A DNA stretch of 64,000 nucleotides from an uncultured delta proteobacterium (lineage in GTDB: Bacteria; Myxococcota_A; Polyangia; Polyangiales; Polyangiaceae), in the NCBI GenBank assembly GCA_963782055.1, contig CAWAIF010000003.1:4576001-4640000 (forward strand), read 5' to 3'. Made by a program: the position numbers and the translations under genes. How positions within the stretch are numbered: position 1 is the stretch's first letter; each line of letters opens with the position of its first letter. Shown one piece after another: positions 1,844 through 18,510 of this stretch. A model generated the notes under the pieces. The model did not search any database. It was not told where the DNA came from and was given only the letters and a program-made list of their open reading frames with translations.

Positions 1844-3160
1844 ATGCGTGCAGTCACCATCCTTTTCTTCGGCACCCTGCTCGGCATCTCGGGCAGCTCC
1901 CTGGCCGCGTGCGGCGGCTCGGCGGACGACGCGGCCACGCCGGACGCGGGCGGCGTCGGCGACAACGACGCCGGCACCACCGACGAGCCGGAGGCCTCCG
2001 CGCCCGCGCCCTTCCCCGCCTTCGACATCGACGCGCCGCAGGTGATCTCCTCCGGCGGTCCGGTCCTCAAGGCCGGCTCGGTCACGCCCGTCTACTTCCC
2101 GGGCTTCGACTACGCGACCGAGATGACCGACATGACCTCCAAGATCGGCGACAGCGCGTACTGGGCCGCCCTCTCCGAGTACGGCGTCGGCAAGCTGACG
2201 CAGGCGACGCCCGTCACCCTCACCAGCAACGACATCCAGCCCGCGGACATCGGCGACATCTCCGACACCGACATCCAGGCGTGGCTAGCCTCCCGCTTCG
2301 ACGGCACGCACCCCGAGTTCGGCACCAAGCCCGACCGCAACACCGTCTACACGCTCTTCTACCCGCCGCAGACCAACATCTACCTCGGCGGCGGGGGCGG
2401 GGGCGGCGACGCCGGAAGCTTCTCCGGGGCGAAGAGCTGCCAGTCCTTCGGCGGCTACCACAACGACATCCTCTACCAGGGCAACACCATCGCCTACGCG
2501 GTCATCCCCGAGTGCCCCGACTTCGGCAACCTGCAGGGCGTGGACGTGGTCACCACCACCACCAGCCACGAGCTCTCCGAGGCGGCGACGGACCCCTTCC
2601 CCACCGACAACACCGCGTACGGCCAGGTGGACGCCAACCACATCGCCTGGGAGATGTACCTGGGCGGCGGCGAGGTGGGCGACATGTGCGCCCAGTTCTC
2701 CTCCTCCTTCTACAAGCCGGACGACATCGGCTACATCGTGCAGCGCAACTGGTCGAACAAGCAGGCGAAGGCCGGCCACGACCCGTGCCAGCCGGAGCTG
2801 CCGGGCGCGGCGGCGTACTTCAACGCGGCGCCCATCTTCCCCGACTCGGTCACCACGCGCGGCTTCCCCACCAAGGGCATCAAGGTGCCGGTCGGCCAGT
2901 CCAAGACGCTGGAGCTCGACCTCTACAGCTCGGGGGCGACGAGCGGGCCGTGGACGGTGAGCGCGCGGACCTTCACGCACGGCGGCAGCGCGCCCTTCAC
3001 CTTCGCCTTCGACAAGACCGATGGCCAGAACGGCGACAAGCTGAACGTGACGATCACCTCCACGACGGCGATCACCAGCAAGTCGGGCTCGGCGACCATC
3101 GTCATCGTCTCGCAGCTCGGAGACCAGAAGACGATCTGGATCGGTCTCGTCAGCAATTAG
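1844..3160 (+). CDS. Secreted lipoprotein with SHELSEAATDP motif (PHI-1/EXORDIUM-like); paralog of 30060-31370
   Basis: RBS ggagg before ATG 1844; lipobox LAAC; motifs GGYH, HELSEAATDP, GEVGDMC, VQRNWSN. Confidence 0.7.
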   Translation: MRAVTILFFGTLLGISGSSLAACGGSADDAATPDAGGVGDNDAGTTDEPEASAPAPFPAFDIDAPQVISSGGPVLKAGSVTPVYFPGFDYATEMTDMTSKIGDSAYWAALSEYGVGKLTQATPVTLTSNDIQPADIGDISDTDIQAWLASRFDGTHPEFGTKPDRNTVYTLFYPPQTNIYLGGGGGGGDAGSFSGAKSCQSFGGYHNDILYQGNTIAYAVIPECPDFGNLQGVDVVTTTTSHELSEAATDPFPTDNTAYGQVDANHIAWEMYLGGGEVGDMCAQFSSSFYKPDDIGYIVQRNWSNKQAKAGHDPCQPELPGAAAYFNAAPIFPDSVTTRGFPTKGIKVPVGQSKTLELDLYSSGATSGPWTVSARTFTHGGSAPFTFAFDKTDGQNGDKLNVTITSTTAITSKSGSATIVIVSQLGDQKTIWIGLVSN

Positions 3161-3167
3161 TCCGGAG

Positions 3168-3187
3168 GGGGCGGCACGCGCCGCCCC
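3168..3187. repeat. REP-like GC palindrome GGGGCGGCACGCGCCGCCCC (copy 1)
   Basis: 8-bp stem, 4-nt loop just after stop at 3160; identical copy at 26166-26185, near copy at 20739-20758. Confidence 0.65.
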
Positions 3188-3272
3188 TCTGCGTGCAGGA
3201 GTTTCGCGCCAGGCCTCGGCACTGGCCGCGCGGCGGCCCCGCCCTATCAACGATCCATCCCCGGGTGAGATC

Positions 3273-5261
3273 ATGGGCAAGAACGTCGCGCGCAAGCTGA
3301 TCGAGTCGCACCTGGTCGAGGGCCAGCCCGTCGCCGGCAAGGAGATCGGCCTGCGGGTCGATCAGACGCTCACCCAGGACGCCACCGGCACGCTGGTGAT
3401 GCTGGAGCTGGAGGCGATGGGCCTCGACCGCGCCCGCACCGAGCTCTCGGCGCAGTACGTGGACCACAACCTCATCCAGGAGGACCACAAGAACGCCGAC
3501 GACCACCTCTTCTTGCGCAGCGCTTGCCGCCGGTGGGGTCTCTGGTTCAGCCGGCCGGGCAACGGCGTCAGCCATCCGGTGCACATGCAGCGGTTCGGAC
3601 GGCCTGGCCGCACGCTCCTCGGGTCGGACAGCCACACGCCGGCGGCGGGCGCCATCGGCATGCTCGCCATCGGCGCGGGCGGGCTGGAGGTGGCCCTGGC
3701 GATCGCCGGCGAGCCCTTCCACATGACGATGCCGGAGGTCTGGGGCGTGCGCCTGACCGGCCGCCTCCCCGACTGGGTGAGCGCGAAGGACGTCATCCTG
3801 GAGATGCTCCGTCGCCACGGGGTCCGCGGCGGGCGCGGGCGCGTCATCGAGTACCACGGGCCAGGCCTCGCCTCGCTCACGCCGTGGGACCGCCACGTCA
3901 TCGCCAACATGGGCACCGAGCTGGGCGCCACCAGCACCGTCTTCCCCGCCGACGACGAGGTCCGCCGCTTCCTGCGCTCGGTGGGGAGAGAGGACGAGTT
4001 CGTCGAGATCCTCGCCGACGACGACGCCCGTTACGACGTGCGCGACGAGATCGATCTGAGCGCGCTCGAGCCCCTCATCGCGCGGCCGAGCAGCCCGGGG
4101 GACGTGGTGCCGGTGCGGGAGGTGGAGGGCGAGCCCATCTACCAGGCCTACATCGGCTCGTCGGCCAACCCGGGCTACCGCGACTTCGCCGTGCCCGCCG
4201 CGATGGTGCGCGGGCGCCGCGTGGCGGAGGGCGTCTCCCTCGACGTCAACCCCACCTCCCGCGAGATGCTGGAGGACCTGCTCGGCGCGGGGCTCATCAC
4301 CGCTCTGGTCCACGCGGGCGCGCGGCTGCACCAGGCCGGCTGCAACGGCTGCATCGGCATGGGCCAGGCGCCTGCGACTGGACGCAACAGCCTTCGCACG
4401 GTGCCGCGCAACTTCCCCGGGCGCTCCGGCACGCGGGAAGACAGCGTGTGGCTGTGCAGCCCGGAGACGGCGACCGCCTCCGCCCTCACCGGCGTGATCA
4501 CCGATCCGCGTCGCTTCGCGAAGGAGGCGGGCCTCGCGCCGGCGCCCGTGGTGCTCCCCGAGCACCCCACGGTGAACACGGCGATGTTCCGCGCCCCGGC
4601 CCCGCCGGCGGAGGCCGCGAAGGTCACGCTGGTGAAGGGCCCCAACATCGACTCCCTGCCGGAGATGGATCCCATCCCCGACGCGCTGGATCTCCCGGTG
4701 CTGCTCGCCCTGGGTGACGACGTCTCCACCGACGAGATCATGCCCGCCGGCACGCGCGTGCTGCCCTTCCGGAGCAACATCCCGCGCATGGCCGACTTCT
4801 GCTTCGACGTGATCGACCCGACCTACCCCGAGCGCGCGCTGCGGCAGAAGAAGCAGCACGGCGGCCACGCGATCATCGCGGGGCATAACTACGGGCAGGG
4901 CTCCAGCCGCGAGCACGCCGCCCTCGCGCCGCGCTACCTGGGGCTGCAGCTGGTGGTGGCCAAGAGCTTCGCCCGCATCCACTGGCAGAACCTCACCAAC
5001 TTCGGCGTGCTGCCGCTGGTGTTCGAGCGCCCCGAGGACGCGGCGGCGATCAAGGTGGGCTCGCGACTCGCGTTGCGCGGCGTGCACGCCGCCCTGCGCG
5101 CGGGGAACCGGATGGACCTGACGATCGACGGCGCGCGCGCGGTCCCGGTCCGCCACGACCTCTCCCCGCGGCAGGTGGACATCCTGCTCGCCGGCAGCCT
5201 GATCGACTGGATACGGCCTCACCCCGCCGGCCCCGCGGGGGAGAGGGCGTCGAGGAGGTAG
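3273..5261 (+). CDS. Aconitate hydratase family protein (short form, atypical GSSAN motif)
   Basis: TQDATGT, DHN, GSDSHT, GCNGCIGMG, RNFPGRSG, STDEIMP, NYGQGSSREHAA, SFARIH. Confidence 0.85.
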   Translation: MGKNVARKLIESHLVEGQPVAGKEIGLRVDQTLTQDATGTLVMLELEAMGLDRARTELSAQYVDHNLIQEDHKNADDHLFLRSACRRWGLWFSRPGNGVSHPVHMQRFGRPGRTLLGSDSHTPAAGAIGMLAIGAGGLEVALAIAGEPFHMTMPEVWGVRLTGRLPDWVSAKDVILEMLRRHGVRGGRGRVIEYHGPGLASLTPWDRHVIANMGTELGATSTVFPADDEVRRFLRSVGREDEFVEILADDDARYDVRDEIDLSALEPLIARPSSPGDVVPVREVEGEPIYQAYIGSSANPGYRDFAVPAAMVRGRRVAEGVSLDVNPTSREMLEDLLGAGLITALVHAGARLHQAGCNGCIGMGQAPATGRNSLRTVPRNFPGRSGTREDSVWLCSPETATASALTGVITDPRRFAKEAGLAPAPVVLPEHPTVNTAMFRAPAPPAEAAKVTLVKGPNIDSLPEMDPIPDALDLPVLLALGDDVSTDEIMPAGTRVLPFRSNIPRMADFCFDVIDPTYPERALRQKKQHGGHAIIAGHNYGQGSSREHAALAPRYLGLQLVVAKSFARIHWQNLTNFGVLPLVFERPEDAAAIKVGSRLALRGVHAALRAGNRMDLTIDGARAVPVRHDLSPRQVDILLAGSLIDWIRPHPAGPAGERASRR

Positions 5262-13865: not shown

Positions 13866-16577
13866 TCAGCCCTGGCCGAGGCCATAGGAGCTGAGCTTCA
13901 GCTTGGCGAAGATCTCGTCCGCGCGATGCGTGTACGCGGCCGCCTCCGCCTGCACGTCGGCGTCGGTCTGGAACTCGAAGGTGCCGCGCAAGAGGTCGGC
14001 GAAGGCGCGGCAGCTCCGCGCGAGCTCCACCTCGTTGCCCGCCTCCTCGAAGATGCGGATGGACTGCTGCAGGTGCTCGCGCGCCGCGCGGATCCCCTCG
14101 CCGCCCGCGCTGCCCGCCGCCGACACCTCGCCGAGCGACCGGAGCGCCACGCCGAGCTGCACCTTGCCCTGCACCTCGCGGAAGATATCCACCGCGCGCG
14201 CCGTGCACTCGCGCGCCTTGGTGTACTCCTTGCGGGAGAGGTACGCCTTGCCCAGGCCACGCACCGCCTCCGCGAGGCCCATCTTGTCGCCCAGCTCGTC
14301 GGCGAGCTCCTCGGCCTGCTTCAGGTAGGTGATGGCGCGCTCGGAGTCGCCCATGCGGTTGAGCGTCTCGCCCAGGTTGGTGAGGATGAGGGCGATGCGG
14401 TTGCGGTCGCCTGTCTCCTTCGCCACGTCGTAGGCCTCCCGGAACAGCTCGAAGGCGCGGCGGTCTTCGCGCTGGTCCTGGGCGACGGTGCCCAGGTTGT
14501 TCAGCGAGATGGCGACCCCCACCAGATCGCCGATCTCCTTGCGGATGACGAGCGCCTGCTCGAAGGCGTCGAGCGCCTCCTTGAAGCGGCCGGAGTCCTG
14601 GTAGACCAGGCCCATGTTGTTGAGCGACAGGGCGATGCTCCGCCGGTCGCCGAGGCGCCGGCGCATCGCGAGCGCCCGCTGCGTGAACTCCAGCGCGCGC
14701 GCGTAGTCGCCCCTGAGCCAGTGCAGCTTGCCGATGTCGTCGACGGTGCTGGCGATGCCGCGCTCGTCACCCGCCTCCTCGAAGAGGTGCAGCGCGGCGT
14801 CCAGGTTGCGCGAGGCGAGCTCCAGGCGGCCGGTGTCGCGGTACAGCCGCCCGATGCGGCCGAGCGCGGCGCCGCCGCGGGTGCGCAGGTCCAGCCGCCA
14901 GGCGACCGACAGCATCTCGCGGAAGACGGCGAGCGCGCCCTCGTTGTTGCCCAGGAGCTGCAGCACGTCGCCGTGGTGATGCAGCGCCGTGACGTGCTGA
15001 TCGGCCTCCACCTCGGCGCCGCCGCGGACGATGGCGAGCCCCTGCGCGTAGTACTCCGCCGCCTTGGCGTTGGCGTAGCGCGAGCGCGCCACGTCGGCAG
15101 CCTCCAGGTACGCGATCGCCGCCCGGCGCGTCGAGCCGGCGAGCTCGCGGTGCCGCGCCAGCATGCCGATGGACTCCTCGTGCGCGCGCAGGTTCTCCTT
15201 GGAGGCGAGCCAGTCGGCGATCGCCGCGTGGAAGCCCCGCGCGGTGCCCGGCGACGTCATCTTGACCAGCGCCTCGCGCTCCAGGTTGTGCTTGAAGACG
15301 TACTCGGTGTCTCCGGAGAAGGTGCTGTCGGGGAGACGCAGGACGTAGTCGCGCTCGGTGAGGTCGGCGAGCATCGTCTGGATGCGCTTCCTGTCGGGGG
15401 CCTCCCCCGCCTCCCACACCTCCGGCGGGGGCGCGCCGCGGCGCTCGATGCTCACCAGCGCGCCCAGCCAGAAGACCGATCCCATCGCCGCGGCGCGCTC
15501 CAGCAGATCGCGCTCCGGCGGGGCGAGCGCCGCGATGCGCGCGGCGATGGCGTCCTCCACCGTGATGGGCAGCTTCACGTTGGCGAGCTTCTCGGGGTGG
15601 ACCGTCCACTTCTCGTACTCGGCGAGCTCGTCCTCCACCTCCAGCACGCCCATGTCGTGGAAGATGCGGACCATCTGCTCGAGCAGCGCCGGGTTGCCGC
15701 CGGCGAGGGTGCACGCCGCGTCGATGAGCTCCTCCACCGCCTCGTCCTCGCCGGCGGGGGCGAGCAGGTCCTGCATCACCGCCGAAGCGTCGGTGTCGGA
15801 GAGGGGCGAGAGGTCCACCACCCGGTGCCGCGGGCCGCCGTGCTTTGCCCAGTCGTCGCGCCGCGCCATCATCTCGGGGCGCGCCAGGCAGAGCAGCAGG
15901 ATGGGCGCCGAGAGATACTCGATGAGGTAGGCGAGCAGGTCGAGCGAGTCGTCGTGCGCCCAGTGCAGGTCGTCGAACACCAGCACCAGCGGGCCCTTCG
16001 GCGACGTCCCCGGCGTGGCGGAGGAGTCGGCGCGCGCGGCGGGGCTCGTCGCGTCCGCCTCGAAGAAGCGCTTGATGACCGCGCGCCGGAGCTGCCGGAG
16101 CTGCTGCGGATCGCCCTCCACCGCCTTGATCAGCGGCGAGTCCATGAAGTCCAGCTCCAGGAGCTGCCCGAGGAAGTAGACGACGTCGCCGACCTTGCGG
16201 TCCTCCAGCACCGCGGCGGCCTGCGCGCGCACCTGCGCCTTCGCCGCCTCCGGGTCCATCCCCTCCACGATGCCGAAGCGCGCGCGCAGCACCCGCGCGA
16301 ACACGCCGTACGCCGGGCCCCCCTCCCGTGAGGTGCCGCGGAAGACGCGCGGCGACCCGCCCTCGAAGTTGCGCGTGCGCAGGAGGAAGTCGCGGACCAG
16401 CCGCGTCTTGCCGATGCCGGCGGCGCCGATGAGCGTCACCGCGCGGCACACCCCCCGCGCGTGGGCGTCGGCGAGGGCCGACTCCAGCTCGCGCATCTCC
16501 GCGGCGCGCCCGACGAGCACCGCGCGCCGCTCGGCGACGCCGAAGCCGCCGGGGGGGAGGAGGCTGAGACTGCTCAT
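13866..16577 (-). CDS. AAA/STAND-type ATPase with C-terminal TPR repeats
   Basis: LVGRAAE, Walker A GAAGIGKTRL, Walker B LVLVFDDLHWA, GGNP, YVFKH; TPR repeats SLNNMGLVY, SLNNLGTV. Confidence 0.85.
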   Translation of the reverse strand: MSSLSLLPPGGFGVAERRAVLVGRAAEMRELESALADAHARGVCRAVTLIGAAGIGKTRLVRDFLLRTRNFEGGSPRVFRGTSREGGPAYGVFARVLRARFGIVEGMDPEAAKAQVRAQAAAVLEDRKVGDVVYFLGQLLELDFMDSPLIKAVEGDPQQLRQLRRAVIKRFFEADATSPAARADSSATPGTSPKGPLVLVFDDLHWAHDDSLDLLAYLIEYLSAPILLLCLARPEMMARRDDWAKHGGPRHRVVDLSPLSDTDASAVMQDLLAPAGEDEAVEELIDAACTLAGGNPALLEQMVRIFHDMGVLEVEDELAEYEKWTVHPEKLANVKLPITVEDAIAARIAALAPPERDLLERAAAMGSVFWLGALVSIERRGAPPPEVWEAGEAPDRKRIQTMLADLTERDYVLRLPDSTFSGDTEYVFKHNLEREALVKMTSPGTARGFHAAIADWLASKENLRAHEESIGMLARHRELAGSTRRAAIAYLEAADVARSRYANAKAAEYYAQGLAIVRGGAEVEADQHVTALHHHGDVLQLLGNNEGALAVFREMLSVAWRLDLRTRGGAALGRIGRLYRDTGRLELASRNLDAALHLFEEAGDERGIASTVDDIGKLHWLRGDYARALEFTQRALAMRRRLGDRRSIALSLNNMGLVYQDSGRFKEALDAFEQALVIRKEIGDLVGVAISLNNLGTVAQDQREDRRAFELFREAYDVAKETGDRNRIALILTNLGETLNRMGDSERAITYLKQAEELADELGDKMGLAEAVRGLGKAYLSRKEYTKARECTARAVDIFREVQGKVQLGVALRSLGEVSAAGSAGGEGIRAAREHLQQSIRIFEEAGNEVELARSCRAFADLLRGTFEFQTDADVQAEAAAYTHRADEIFAKLKLSSYGLGQG

Positions 16578-16635: not shown

Positions 16636-17358
16636 TCATGCGCCGGCCGCGTTCACCGCCTCCGCCAGCCACGCCCGGGACGGGCCGCTCTGGACGTTCA
16701 GGGCCTCCAGGCCGGGGAAGATCACCTCCTCGAGGGTCTTGACGAACACCGCGCGCCGCGCCGAGTAGGGCAGCACGCCGTGCTCCACCAGGCGCGCGTC
16801 CTCCGGCCCCTTCGTGGCGGGCTTGAAGGAGTCGCCCGCGGTGGTCCGCAGCATCCACGGGATCCACTTCGAGAGGAAGGAGAGGTCGTCACGCTCCTTG
16901 TGGCTCGCCAGCACCGCCCAGCCCAGACGCGCGTGGGCGACCTCGTCGCGGGAGAACTCGCGGAGCACCGAACGCATGGCCCTGCCCTTCGTCGCGCCCA
17001 TCAGCGTCACCAGCATGACCGTGCTCTCGGTCTCCGCCATGCAGGACGCGGCGACCTCGTAGAGCACGCGGCGCCGGAAGGAGAGCTTCGCCGGCGCGAT
17101 CTCGCTCGGGACGACCGGGTCGGTCAGCCGCGCGGCGCCGTACCTGTCGGCCAGCTCGGCGCAGTAGCCCTCGTGCCGCTGTTCGTCGCGGGAGGCCGCG
17201 AGCGCCAGCTTCACCAGCGGCGCGGGTGTGCCGATGCGCTCCAGCCGGCCCGCCAGCCGCGCGAAGCGCATCGTCGCGTCGCGCTCGACCGCCTCGCGAA
17301 ACGCCCAGGCCTTCCCCGCGGCGCGCTCGATCCCGACACCCCCGGAGGGGCTCGTCAC
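16636..17358 (-). CDS. Ferritin-like (di-iron carboxylate) domain protein
   Basis: Helical protein with EAVE, DEQRH, AETES and DEVAHARLGW; two ExxH motifs. Confidence 0.75.
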   Translation of the reverse strand: MTSPSGGVGIERAAGKAWAFREAVERDATMRFARLAGRLERIGTPAPLVKLALAASRDEQRHEGYCAELADRYGAARLTDPVVPSEIAPAKLSFRRRVLYEVAASCMAETESTVMLVTLMGATKGRAMRSVLREFSRDEVAHARLGWAVLASHKERDDLSFLSKWIPWMLRTTAGDSFKPATKGPEDARLVEHGVLPYSARRAVFVKTLEEVIFPGLEALNVQSGPSRAWLAEAVNAAGA

Positions 17359-17606
17359 CAGCTACACAGGCCGTGCGTGCAATCGCCCGGCTTGTTCAGG
17401 CACCCGGCGTCCTGGCCGGTGCCGGTGTCCGGCTGGGCGGCGGCGTCGTTGCCCTGCGCTCCCTGATCGTCCGCGGCGTCGGCCGCGGGGCCGCCCGCGT
17501 CGGAGTCCGTCGTCGGGCCGCCGGAGCACGCGGGAATGGCGAGGGACATGCCCCCGATCACCAGCACGTTGAAGAGCTTCGATGCATCGACGGCCAGCGG
17601 TTTCAT
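17355..17606 (-). CDS. Small secreted/lipo-peptide (83 aa) with C-terminal Cys/Trp motif
   Basis: Hydrophobic N-region LFNVLVIGG, lipobox-like IPAC, acidic DAG linker, ends CLNKPGDCTHGLCSW; TGA overlaps GTG of ferritin-like gene. Confidence 0.7.
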   Translation of the reverse strand: MKPLAVDASKLFNVLVIGGMSLAIPACSGGPTTDSDAGGPAADAADDQGAQGNDAAAQPDTGTGQDAGCLNKPGDCTHGLCSW

Positions 17607-17658
17607 GTCCCCCAGAATACCGGCGGCGCGGGTGGCGGTCAAAAGGCGGACGGAGCGG

Positions 17659-18510
17659 CTAGCGCTTCCGTTCGCGGGCGGACGCGGGCTTGCCGCGATG
17701 CGCCGCCTTGTCGTGCCTGGCCGGGTGCGCGTGGTGCGCCGCCTTCTTGTGCCGCTTGTGCCGGGCCGCCCAGCTCAGCACCGGGTTCTCCACGCACCCG
17801 CGCATCCCCGAGGGACACGAGATGCGCACGTGGAAGTGGTCGTCGTGCGGCAGCGTCCCGCGCGGCTGCTCCATCGTGTCGGCGGCCCGCTGCACGAGCG
17901 CCGCGGGCGCGCCGGCGTGCTTCGCGTAAGAGAGGAGCCGCGCGCGCAGGGGGGTCGAGACGAAGATGTGGCTCACGTGCGCGACCGGGTCGTCGAGCAG
18001 CGCCGCCACCAGCGCCCAGTTCTTCGCGTCGTCGAAGCGCGCTCCCGGCCATGTCGGCGCCGTACCGTCGCCCCGGAAGCGCACGAAGTGGTCGGCGAAG
18101 ATCTCGCGGCCGTGGCCGTTGTGCACGTAAAAGGCGATGTCGGCGTCGCGTCCGCTCTCGTGCGAGGCGTGGCGCTGGATGTCGCCGCCCCCGCGCTGCG
18201 AGATCTGCCCGACCGAGAGCACCGCCCCCTTGAACTGGTGGCGCACGCGGCGCGCCGCGCGATCGATCATGCTCACCAGCGAGCCCAGCCCCCAGCGCAC
18301 GTCGCCGGCGCGGTCCGCGGGGACGATGCGCAGGTACGTGGCCGACTCCAGGTGCGAGCCGCCCACCAGGTGCCCCTGGTTGGGCGCCCCCACGCTGCGA
18401 CCCATCGGGAACGCGGGGGCGTGCTTCTTGTGCGCCGGCGCCCGCGCGGCGGCAGGACGGACGACGAGCCCGAGACAAAGGGCCGCCGCGAGAGCGAGGA
18501 CGAGGCGCAT
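17659..18510 (-). CDS. mepA: Penicillin-insensitive murein endopeptidase (MepA family)
   Basis: Signal peptide; SVGAPNQGHL, HASHESGRDAD, HDDHFHVRISCP. Confidence 0.8.
   Translation of the reverse strand: MRLVLALAAALCLGLVVRPAAARAPAHKKHAPAFPMGRSVGAPNQGHLVGGSHLESATYLRIVPADRAGDVRWGLGSLVSMIDRAARRVRHQFKGAVLSVGQISQRGGGDIQRHASHESGRDADIAFYVHNGHGREIFADHFVRFRGDGTAPTWPGARFDDAKNWALVAALLDDPVAHVSHIFVSTPLRARLLSYAKHAGAPAALVQRAADTMEQPRGTLPHDDHFHVRISCPSGMRGCVENPVLSWAARHKRHKKAAHHAHPARHDKAAHRGKPASARERKR

Follow-up and report, generated by a model that had tools for sequence, protein, structure and literature searches.

A conserved myxobacterial gene pair encoding a predicted lipopeptide and a ferritin-like di-iron protein, a candidate RiPP-lipoprotein-like system

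The described systems that come closest to the gene pair studied here are the DAG-RiPPs, hybrids between lipoproteins and ribosomally synthesized peptides with post-translational modifications (RiPPs) that are made by oxidative enzymes dependent on multinuclear non-heme iron (MNIOs) of the ChrH/DybH type (PMC13056109, PNAS 2026). According to that report, a lipobox signal is present in the precursors of the DAG-RiPPs, and their modification takes place in the cytoplasm through an iron enzyme without a signal peptide of its own, as was shown experimentally; genome mining in that work covered the neighborhoods of MNIOs only, and its authors state that RiPP-lipoproteins beyond the MNIOs may exist. 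Bufferins and oxazolins, as described in the papers on them, are signal-peptide-bearing, copper-binding RiPPs that are likewise modified by MNIOs (PMC11626156, PMC11252979, PMC12452194). Here we consider a pair of overlapping genes, encoding a small predicted lipopeptide and a ferritin-like di-iron protein, in a 64,000-nucleotide stretch (hereafter the window) from the genome of an uncultured delta proteobacterium of the Polyangiaceae (assembly GCA_963782055.1, contig CAWAIF010000003.1, positions 4,576,001 to 4,640,000 of the forward strand). We confirm the pair and its conservation, and would class it under the RiPP-lipoprotein concept, with an enzyme superfamily that is new to that concept. 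The initial annotation of the window had taken the tail of the peptide to be oxidatively modified by the adjoining protein, an interpretation that the analysis below partly supports. The features of the pair, numbered by position in the window, are the following.

17355-17606, minus strand: small precursor-type open reading frame (ORF) of 83 codons plus TGA, with a predicted lipoprotein signal, a spacer and a Cys/Trp tail
17550-17579, minus strand: leader decapeptide KLFNVLVIGG inside the signal peptide, from sequence reading and conservation
17526-17537, minus strand: lipobox-like IPAC, with Cys27 as the predicted site of lipidation and cleavage, from motif reading
17358-17402, minus strand: C-terminal core CLNKPGDCTHGLCSW, from sequence reading
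17355-17358, minus strand: GTGA overlap of the peptide stop (TGA, 17355-17357) with the enzyme start (GTG, 17356-17358)
16636-17358, minus strand: ferritin-like di-iron-carboxylate protein of 240 codons with a GTG start, from alignment, an AlphaFold2 model and fold matches
17284-17286, minus strand: enzyme ligand E25
17173-17187, minus strand: enzyme motif DEQRH with ligands E59 and H62
within 17023-17034, minus strand: enzyme ligand E109
16933-16947, minus strand: enzyme motif DEVAH with ligands E139 and H142

The peptide ORF starts with an ATG at 17606 and its N-terminus reads MKPLAVDAS-KLFNVLVIGG-MSLA-IPAC, followed by an Asp/Gly/Ala-rich spacer and the core. By its motifs, namely a basic n-region, a hydrophobic stretch and IPAC, this reads as a signal of the signal peptidase II (SPII) type with a lipobox Cys. 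Translation and coordinates confirmed everything that had initially been read from this locus: the 83-residue ORF, the KLFNVLVIGG and IPAC elements, the acidic spacer, the compact tail, and the stop overlapping the GTG of a 240-residue protein with two ExxH motifs. The GC content by codon position of the small ORF (0.68/0.58/0.89, versus 0.70/0.54/0.96 for the enzyme ORF, in a window of 72.6% GC) looks like that of a coding sequence, and from the GTGA overlap we infer translational coupling of the two genes.

The conservation of the pair was assessed from the side of either gene. A scan of one genome per species returned 524 stretches encoding relatives of the enzyme, and the counts out of 80 and 75 loci given below refer to the best 80 of these 524, which belong to records of Polyangiales, Anaeromyxobacteraceae, Archangiaceae and Myxococcaceae. 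Five of the 80 are cut off upstream of the enzyme, leaving 75 assessable loci, and in 64 of these an intact leader-type small ORF ends at or overlaps the enzyme start; 63 were found by the leader pattern, and the last (L037) is intact with KFF in its leader. The other 11 comprise one peptide split by a frame change in its low-complexity spacer (L064), one shortened remnant (L059) and nine enzymes without a peptide. Three orthologous loci of the same genus have the same small ORF, ending in C..DC[TS]HG[LT]C[SGA]W, with its stop abutting or overlapping the enzyme start. An even sample of the phylum contains the enzyme family, at E<=1e-30, in 19 of 301 genomes (17 of 209 genera), with a leader-type peptide upstream in 15 of the 19 loci, one locus masked over the N-terminus and three lacking the peptide. 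The initial annotation had proposed to look for small ORFs upstream of the homologs of the ferritin-like protein, and such an ORF is conserved across all four of the groups named above; the result that it had named as speaking against the idea, homologs lacking a conserved peptide upstream, was not what was seen. No other neighbor is conserved, the largest cluster of neighboring genes being present in 11 of 81 loci.

From the side of the peptide, a scan of metagenomes with an alignment of 11 peptides and the pattern LFQ[VL]LV[LMV]GG gave 163 relatives, of which 80 were kept, 70 of them with at least 300 nucleotides downstream of the peptide; the sample favors one variant of the leader and soil samples that are related to each other, and holds many near-duplicates. 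A ferritin-like gene starts 3-29 nucleotides after the peptide stop in 62 of the 70 loci, and a 63rd (L175) shows a frame artefact with the enzyme present. Six others are stand-alone peptides that face a convergent gene. Locus L190 (1-433) encodes two leader-type peptides in tandem, ending in ...GGGVHFW and ...GPQFW, and no ferritin-like gene was detected in the ~650 nucleotides downstream of them.

The window's own genome (7.58 Mb) encodes about ten weaker paralogs of the ferritin-like protein, the neighborhoods of which make up, by our arithmetic, less than 1% of the genome. Three coding-like ORFs genome-wide contain the strict leader motif followed by a Cys, and each lies within 700 nucleotides of a ferritin-like paralog. 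Their arrangements differ: the leader-bearing ORF is upstream in the window pair, downstream of the enzyme gene with an overlapping ATGA at L022, and divergent at L021. A loose signal-like motif matched 41 ORFs, only three of which lie near a paralog. In this genome the strict leader motif is confined to ferritin-like neighborhoods, whatever the gene order. At L022 (G000:C3:814000-818000, minus strand, ~1236-1469) the enzyme comes first and the ATG of a 77-residue lipopeptide (MMRHRLFAAIVLSG...C...FVKPPIITH) overlaps its stop. L021 (G000:C3:5003000-5007500, plus strand, 2963-3487 and the preceding ORF) encodes two tandem Cys-rich lipoproteins divergent from the closest paralog; one of them, of 174 residues with the leader RLFRAIVLGG, lies 699 nucleotides from the paralog on the other strand, and directly upstream of the paralog itself there is no small ORF. 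Further, at L023 (G000:C3:354000-358000), two tandem small lipoproteins with a different signal, a shared V(G/A)VAYCCF(D/E)A motif and acidic tails are encoded just upstream of a distant paralog at ~1795-2634. Across these samples the pair recurs far beyond chance, and its two genes constitute a self-contained module conserved across the Myxococcota.

An alignment and profile of 38 peptides (A2) has L11, V16 and the terminal Trp in every member, and L15, G18, G19, the lipobox Cys and a Gly at position -4 in at least 90%; the only full-length member that this profile recovers in the window's genome is the 83-codon peptide (E 1.6e-16). The terminal Trp is found in 60 of the 63 linked peptides and is also kept in L111, a copy that is not linked to an enzyme gene. 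That this Trp is a by-product of the GTG overlap can be rejected: the junctions of the 60 Trp-ending peptides read TGGTGA in 47, TGGTAG in 11 and TGGTAA in two, and since 13 of the 60 therefore stop with TAG or TAA, the overlapping GTG does not force the residue. A lipobox-like Cys was called by script in 55 of the 63 linked peptides (56 counting by eye L074, with LVKC), and seven members of an Anaeromyxobacter type have a Lys/Glu-rich spacer and a signal of the signal peptidase I (SPI) type without the Cys.

A profile search of 1.84 billion cluster representatives extended the family to 380 proteins at E<=1e-3, 37 of them at E<=1e-10. The 149 best matches other than the window's own peptide have a median length of 68 residues and a Cys after the leader in 136 cases; 131 end in Trp, 94 of these in Gly-Trp, and 129 of the 131 have Gly at -4. 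The consensus of their leaders is K/R(143)-L(149)-F(130)-x-V(104)-L(144)-V(148)-x-G(137)-G(146), with counts that are partly circular because the profile itself selected these representatives. The three-Cys tail of the window's peptide is seen in 12 of the 149 clusters, and most of the 149 (94 end in Gly-Trp) have neither Cys nor His in the core. Judged from these alignments, the motif C..C[TS]HG[LT]C[SGA]W with its three Cys belongs to the window's clade only, and what is family-wide is the leader together with G-x-x-x-W. Accordingly, of the initial expectation that homologs would share an LFxxLVxGG leader and a Cys/Trp C-terminus, the leader and the terminal Trp held, while the three Cys turned out to be peculiar to that clade. 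Cassettes from distant parts of the enzyme tree keep the leader and have hypervariable Cys/Trp-rich cores, among them CCWATGECCEPCCGHLxP, CCWLMxxPxHPCC, CCWGTSC, CPWAGMDPCxC, ICWG, CAWF, WLSWFS and a C-rich ...CIL. Core types cluster on a quick tree of 101 enzyme rows (excluding L112, which duplicates L107, and L022, whose match was short), requiring 17 changes against 42.4 for shuffled labels, a contrast that kinship confounds. Neither Pfam nor NCBIfam contains a match to the window's peptide, and 11 diverse peptides gave sub-threshold noise only. On the evidence of the alignments, the conservation of the leader far exceeds the demands of export alone, and the cores are highly variable. The combination of a conserved leader, a variable core and an adjoining conserved enzyme of tailoring type is a general trait of RiPPs, and at the level of sequence it is found here.

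The 240-residue protein has the ligand pattern E...ExxH...E...ExxH on helices 1-4. An alignment of 39 members shows no variation at E25, D58-E59-x-x-H62, E109 and D138-E139-x-x-H142, and all six di-iron ligands (E25, E59, H62, E109, E139 and H142) are kept in 100 of the 102 enzyme rows from the loci; as the alignments have it, the ligands are under strong selection. The AlphaFold2 model is all-helical around a four-helix-bundle core, with a predicted local distance difference test score (pLDDT) of 93.5 and a predicted template modeling score of 0.90. Its best match by VIA-align is the chain 5ux2_B, related to aldehyde-deformylating oxygenase (ADO), at Z 17.3 and a root-mean-square deviation of 3.1 over 201 aligned residues; PaaC-like chains (4mud_A, Z 16.3; 3pvr_B, Z 16.2) and the hydroxylase chain 1fyz_A of soluble methane monooxygenase (Z 15.7) are also matched. 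The best oxygenase-type chains (ranks 1-6) align over 198-207 residues at Z 15.7-17.3, whereas chains of mini-ferritin, Dps and rubrerythrin type match the first four helices only (~130-150 residues, Z 11-12.5), and the Foldseek list agrees with the placement among substrate-oxidizing di-iron proteins. In the model the eight-helix architecture is that of these oxygenase-type proteins, and a corresponding activity is predicted. The complete ligand set, the model and the fold matches bear out the initial assignment of the protein to the ferritin-like di-iron class.

For the same protein Pfam returned Rubrerythrin (PF02915) at 17.9 bits (E 0.004), below the gathering cut-off of 22.8 bits, and no match to DUF692; an NCBIfam scan of both proteins of the pair gave nothing meaningful, PADLOC matched neither, and a profile search of the PDB with the enzyme found no relative, the best hit (E 0.015) being an unrelated methyltransferase. 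A word-index search gave 69 relatives at 43-100% identity, almost all of them unnamed. Upstream of the GTG the enzyme frame closes at once, leaving an open stretch of only 241 codons, so that an N-terminal extension is impossible and the enzyme has no signal peptide. No longer, fused forms of this exact enzyme family were found at E<=1e-10, which is weak evidence; one apparent case, the 304-residue P0050, was rejected as a mis-called start that reads through the peptide gene in another frame. Programmed -1 frameshifting into a fused lipoprotein-enzyme was set aside, as inspection of the junction by eye showed no slippery heptamer.

In several distant paralogs of the enzyme, one polypeptide holds the ferritin-like domain and, ahead of it, a lipoprotein-type signal, a linker and a Cys-rich segment. 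In the window's genome these are L024 (G000:C3:5069000-5073000, minus strand, 1112-2212) as well as L026, L027, L028 and L030, which have an Asp/Gly/Ala linker, a Cys-rich, beta-rich segment and a conserved junction C..C.G..GRRP.GL. At E<=1e-10 the fused family gathers 101 relatives, of which a few bear the names 'putative lipoprotein' or 'ferritin-like domain-containing protein', and its ferritin-like domain is homologous to the window enzyme (hhalign probability 98.9, E 3e-17). The AlphaFold2 model of a fused paralog from the window's genome has a pLDDT of 86.2, with ~95 in the N-terminal helix and below 50 in the linker, and 9 of its 50 structural matches begin at model residue 1; it is consistent with the N-terminal helix packing on the ferritin core in the way of the N-terminal helix of R2lox or the monooxygenases. 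If the signal is real, the di-iron domain of these proteins would be exported as a lipoprotein. Fused Polyangia proteins of this kind ('putative lipoprotein [Labilithrix luteola]', 'ferritin-like domain-containing protein [Polyangium]') resemble the pair in their homologous ferritin-like domain, their lipoprotein-type N-terminal signal, their Asp/Gly/Ala linker and their Cys-rich segment; they differ from it in being one uncharacterised polypeptide in which the Cys-rich part is a folded domain of ~90 residues.

Given that the upstream peptide is conserved, that the enzyme is of oxygenase type and that the pair is undescribed, a reading as leader-guided peptide modification is reasonable. The initial annotation had not recognized the pair as a characterized system, and indeed no Pfam or NCBIfam family covers it at curated cut-offs and we found no paper that describes it; the papers searched in full text contain no description of a ferritin-like enzyme paired with such peptides. 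In the reading that we tentatively favor, although we would not go so far as to call it probable, the pair would be a leader-guided system resembling the RiPP-lipoproteins, in which the cytoplasmic di-iron enzyme would oxidize the core of the peptide before export. The enzyme would recognize and bind the conserved leader, the peptide being its substrate, and the Trp-containing C-terminal core would be oxidized in the cytoplasm ahead of passage through Sec. The site would be the indole of the Trp, together with a neighboring Cys in Cys-rich cores; PaaA, the bacterial multicomponent monooxygenases (BMMs) and AurF/CmlI carry out aromatic oxidation, and because these are among the nearest folds the indole is the favored site. 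The peptide would then be exported via Sec, and Lgt, LspA and Lnt would lipidate Cys27 and trim the product, leaving it lipid-anchored in most members. The logic would be that of the DAG-RiPP hybrids, except that a ferritin-like di-iron enzyme would do the work of the MNIO. A more far-reaching form of this reading, which we regard as doubtful, sees in the family a new class of RiPP-lipoproteins in which the lipoprotein signal doubles as the leader for a ferritin-like di-iron oxygenase: the C-terminal Trp would be oxidized, Cys-Trp links or a Trp-derived quinone would be possible in Cys-rich cores, and the product would be a membrane-tethered redox-active or metal-binding lipopeptide in many myxobacteria.

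Several observations weigh against modification of the peptide by the enzyme. In 9 of the 75 genome loci the enzyme is kept, with its ligands intact, without a linked peptide, and for Myxococcus xanthus and Myxococcus sp. Y35 the A2 profile found no full-length peptide anywhere in the genome; the linked peptides of Archangium and Hyalangium, in contrast, were found by the same profile at E ~1e-15 to 1e-17. Such enzymes imply that the protein can work without the peptide or has another substrate. On the quick tree the nine, together with the remnant L059, form a single Myxococcus/Pyxidicoccus clade nested beside Archangium. Peptides also stand alone, in L111 and in the six metagenome loci noted above: Pyxidicoccus caerfyrddinensis has an enzyme without a linked peptide (L038) and, on another contig, an intact GW-type peptide (L111; G043:C98:55500-59500, minus strand, 2166-2366) that is followed by a 125-nucleotide gap and an unrelated secreted-protein gene. 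No RiPP recognition element-like domain, protease, transporter or reductase is conserved near the pair in the neighbor comparison of 81 loci, nor is a ferredoxin or reductase partner encoded nearby or a dedicated recognition element, protease or transporter present in the cluster; the general Sec/Lol machinery could stand in for a dedicated protease and transporter, as in the DAG-RiPPs. As to the peptides themselves, the lipobox of the window's clade has an atypical Pro at -2. In the wider superfamily no core residue is found in every peptide: both Trp and Cys are missing from the core of the L022 peptide, and Trp is missing from L128, one of two peptides that end in CIL. As for the Gly run that precedes the terminal Trp in many members (GGNGGNGG), a part of it could serve the enzyme gene as its Shine-Dalgarno site. 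There may be some truth in seeing the run as no more than a ribosome-binding site, but the window's clade keeps G(-4)...W with unrelated codons. Finally, the cytoplasm is a presumed compartment of action, because the homologous domain of the fused paralogs, placed behind a lipoprotein signal, would be exported.

The strongest alternative, which we nevertheless consider unlikely, is that the peptide is an unmodified small subunit or chaperone, its N-terminal helix being a noncovalent partner of the ferritin-like protein. It might serve as an extra helix of the bundle, as a membrane tether for an enzyme acting on lipids, or as the ligand of a protein that binds signal peptides for proofreading, and the true substrate would be, for instance, an acyl chain, as for ADO, the desaturases and R2lox. 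The leader is indeed the one conserved feature that every cassette type shares, irrespective of its core, the overlapping stop and start codons would suit stoichiometric partners, the nearest folds bind hydrophobic substrates, and the orphan Myxococcus enzymes keep their ligands. The well-modeled N-terminal helix of the fused paralog (pLDDT ~95), with its 9 of 50 structural matches starting at residue 1, points the same way, though AlphaFold2 can place signal helices on hydrophobic surfaces artefactually. Moreover, the N-terminus of the peptide looks like a standard cleavable signal, of SPII type or, in seven members, of SPI type, and the low-complexity linker after it resembles a tether; a subunit role also leaves unexplained why the G-x-x-x-W end is conserved as protein sequence and persists in copies that are not linked to an enzyme gene.

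Rather improbable, in our view, is that the two proteins are merely co-regulated parts of a stress module with independent functions, the exported Cys/His/Trp-tailed lipopeptide binding metal or buffering the redox state of the envelope and the ferritin-like protein handling iron or peroxide in the manner of rubrerythrin or Dps. Each gene does stand alone in some genomes, the tail in the window's clade has three Cys and one His, and the sub-cut-off match to Rubrerythrin (PF02915, E 0.004) would fit. Against this, 94 of the 149 representatives end in GW and most family members have no Cys or His in the core, the architecture is of the eight-helix oxygenase type, with chains of Dps and rubrerythrin type matching over a shorter length and at lower Z, and neither the conservation of the leader nor its confinement to ferritin-like neighborhoods is explained. 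A secretion-monitor ORF, in which a GxxxW-stop arrest motif would control translation of the overlapping gene in the manner of the arrest peptides SecM, MifM and VemP, whose known action is only in cis on a downstream secretion-factor gene, would account for the signal peptide, the spacer of variable length, the conserved last five residues and the stop overlapping the downstream start, but is very improbable indeed, as unlinked peptides keep all features of the peptide itself ahead of a 125-nucleotide gap or a convergent gene, the cassette order is reversed at L022 (enzyme, then peptide), there are many long, Cys-rich cores with an end other than Trp, and the downstream gene encodes a di-iron protein rather than a secretion factor.

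Upstream of the peptide gene there is one further feature.

17614-17642, minus strand: sigma-70-like promoter match TTGACC-17-TATTCT, by consensus match only

One such site was found before the peptide gene against 0.1 expected in shuffled sequences. The match ends 7 nucleotides upstream of the peptide ATG, so that the site may give the pair a transcript of its own that is leaderless or nearly so. A GGGGGA run lies between the two promoter-like hexamers. The neighbors on the same strand are a STAND-type protein of 903 residues with AAA_16 and TPR domains (13866-16577, minus strand) and a murein endopeptidase of the Peptidase_M74 (MepA-like) family with a signal peptide (17659-18510, minus strand), and neither of them is kept beside the pair in other genomes.

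Should the pair function through oxidation of the peptide, it would extend the RiPP-lipoprotein hybrids beyond the MNIOs, as the DAG-RiPP report anticipated but did not show (PMC13056109). The ferritin-like di-iron-carboxylate superfamily would likewise become part of peptide tailoring, and a signal peptide would be seen, more generally, to be capable of holding another code besides its own, one addressed to an enzyme. The module is diverse (the 380 peptide clusters at E<=1e-3), has hypervariable Cys/Trp cores and occurs in myxobacteria, a group mined for natural products; being minimal, with two overlapping genes, it is easy to test by co-expression.

When the enzyme is set beside the characterized di-iron oxygenases, it shares the helical-bundle architecture and the E/ExxH/E/ExxH ligands of ADO, PaaA/PaaC, the soluble methane, toluene and phenol monooxygenase hydroxylases, R2lox and AurF/CmlI, at a sequence identity of only 8-16%. 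We know of none among these proteins that acts on a ribosomal peptide, and to our knowledge the ferritin-like di-iron oxygenase superfamily as a whole has no member that tailors ribosomal peptides. The bufferins and oxazolins, as the papers describe them, are alike in having Sec-type signal peptides, a non-heme iron enzyme, action in the envelope and Cys-containing cores, and unlike in the fold of the enzyme, in the partner proteins, and in that Cys is modified there whereas most members of the pair's family have no core Cys.

Closest remain the DAG-RiPPs, again as described in the report on them. Like the pair, they have a precursor with a lipoprotein signal peptide and a lipobox Cys (read here from motifs), a conserved C-terminal motif, and an adjoining iron-dependent oxidative enzyme (here predicted) without a signal peptide, and it is the lack of this signal that would place the modifying enzyme in the cytoplasm in both cases; a dedicated protease or exporter is not needed by the DAG-RiPPs because the general lipoprotein pathway does the work. 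Unlike the pair, which has a ferritin-like four-helix-bundle di-iron-carboxylate protein and a family core of G-x-x-x-W or Cys/Trp-rich type, they have a TIM-barrel MNIO (DUF692) and the core CPxCGxG; further, the signal peptide of the pair itself bears a strongly conserved decapeptide, and the pair is known from sequence only. Since its fold is ferritin-like and DUF692 is not matched, the pair would at most work like a DAG-RiPP, rather than be a member of that class as published.

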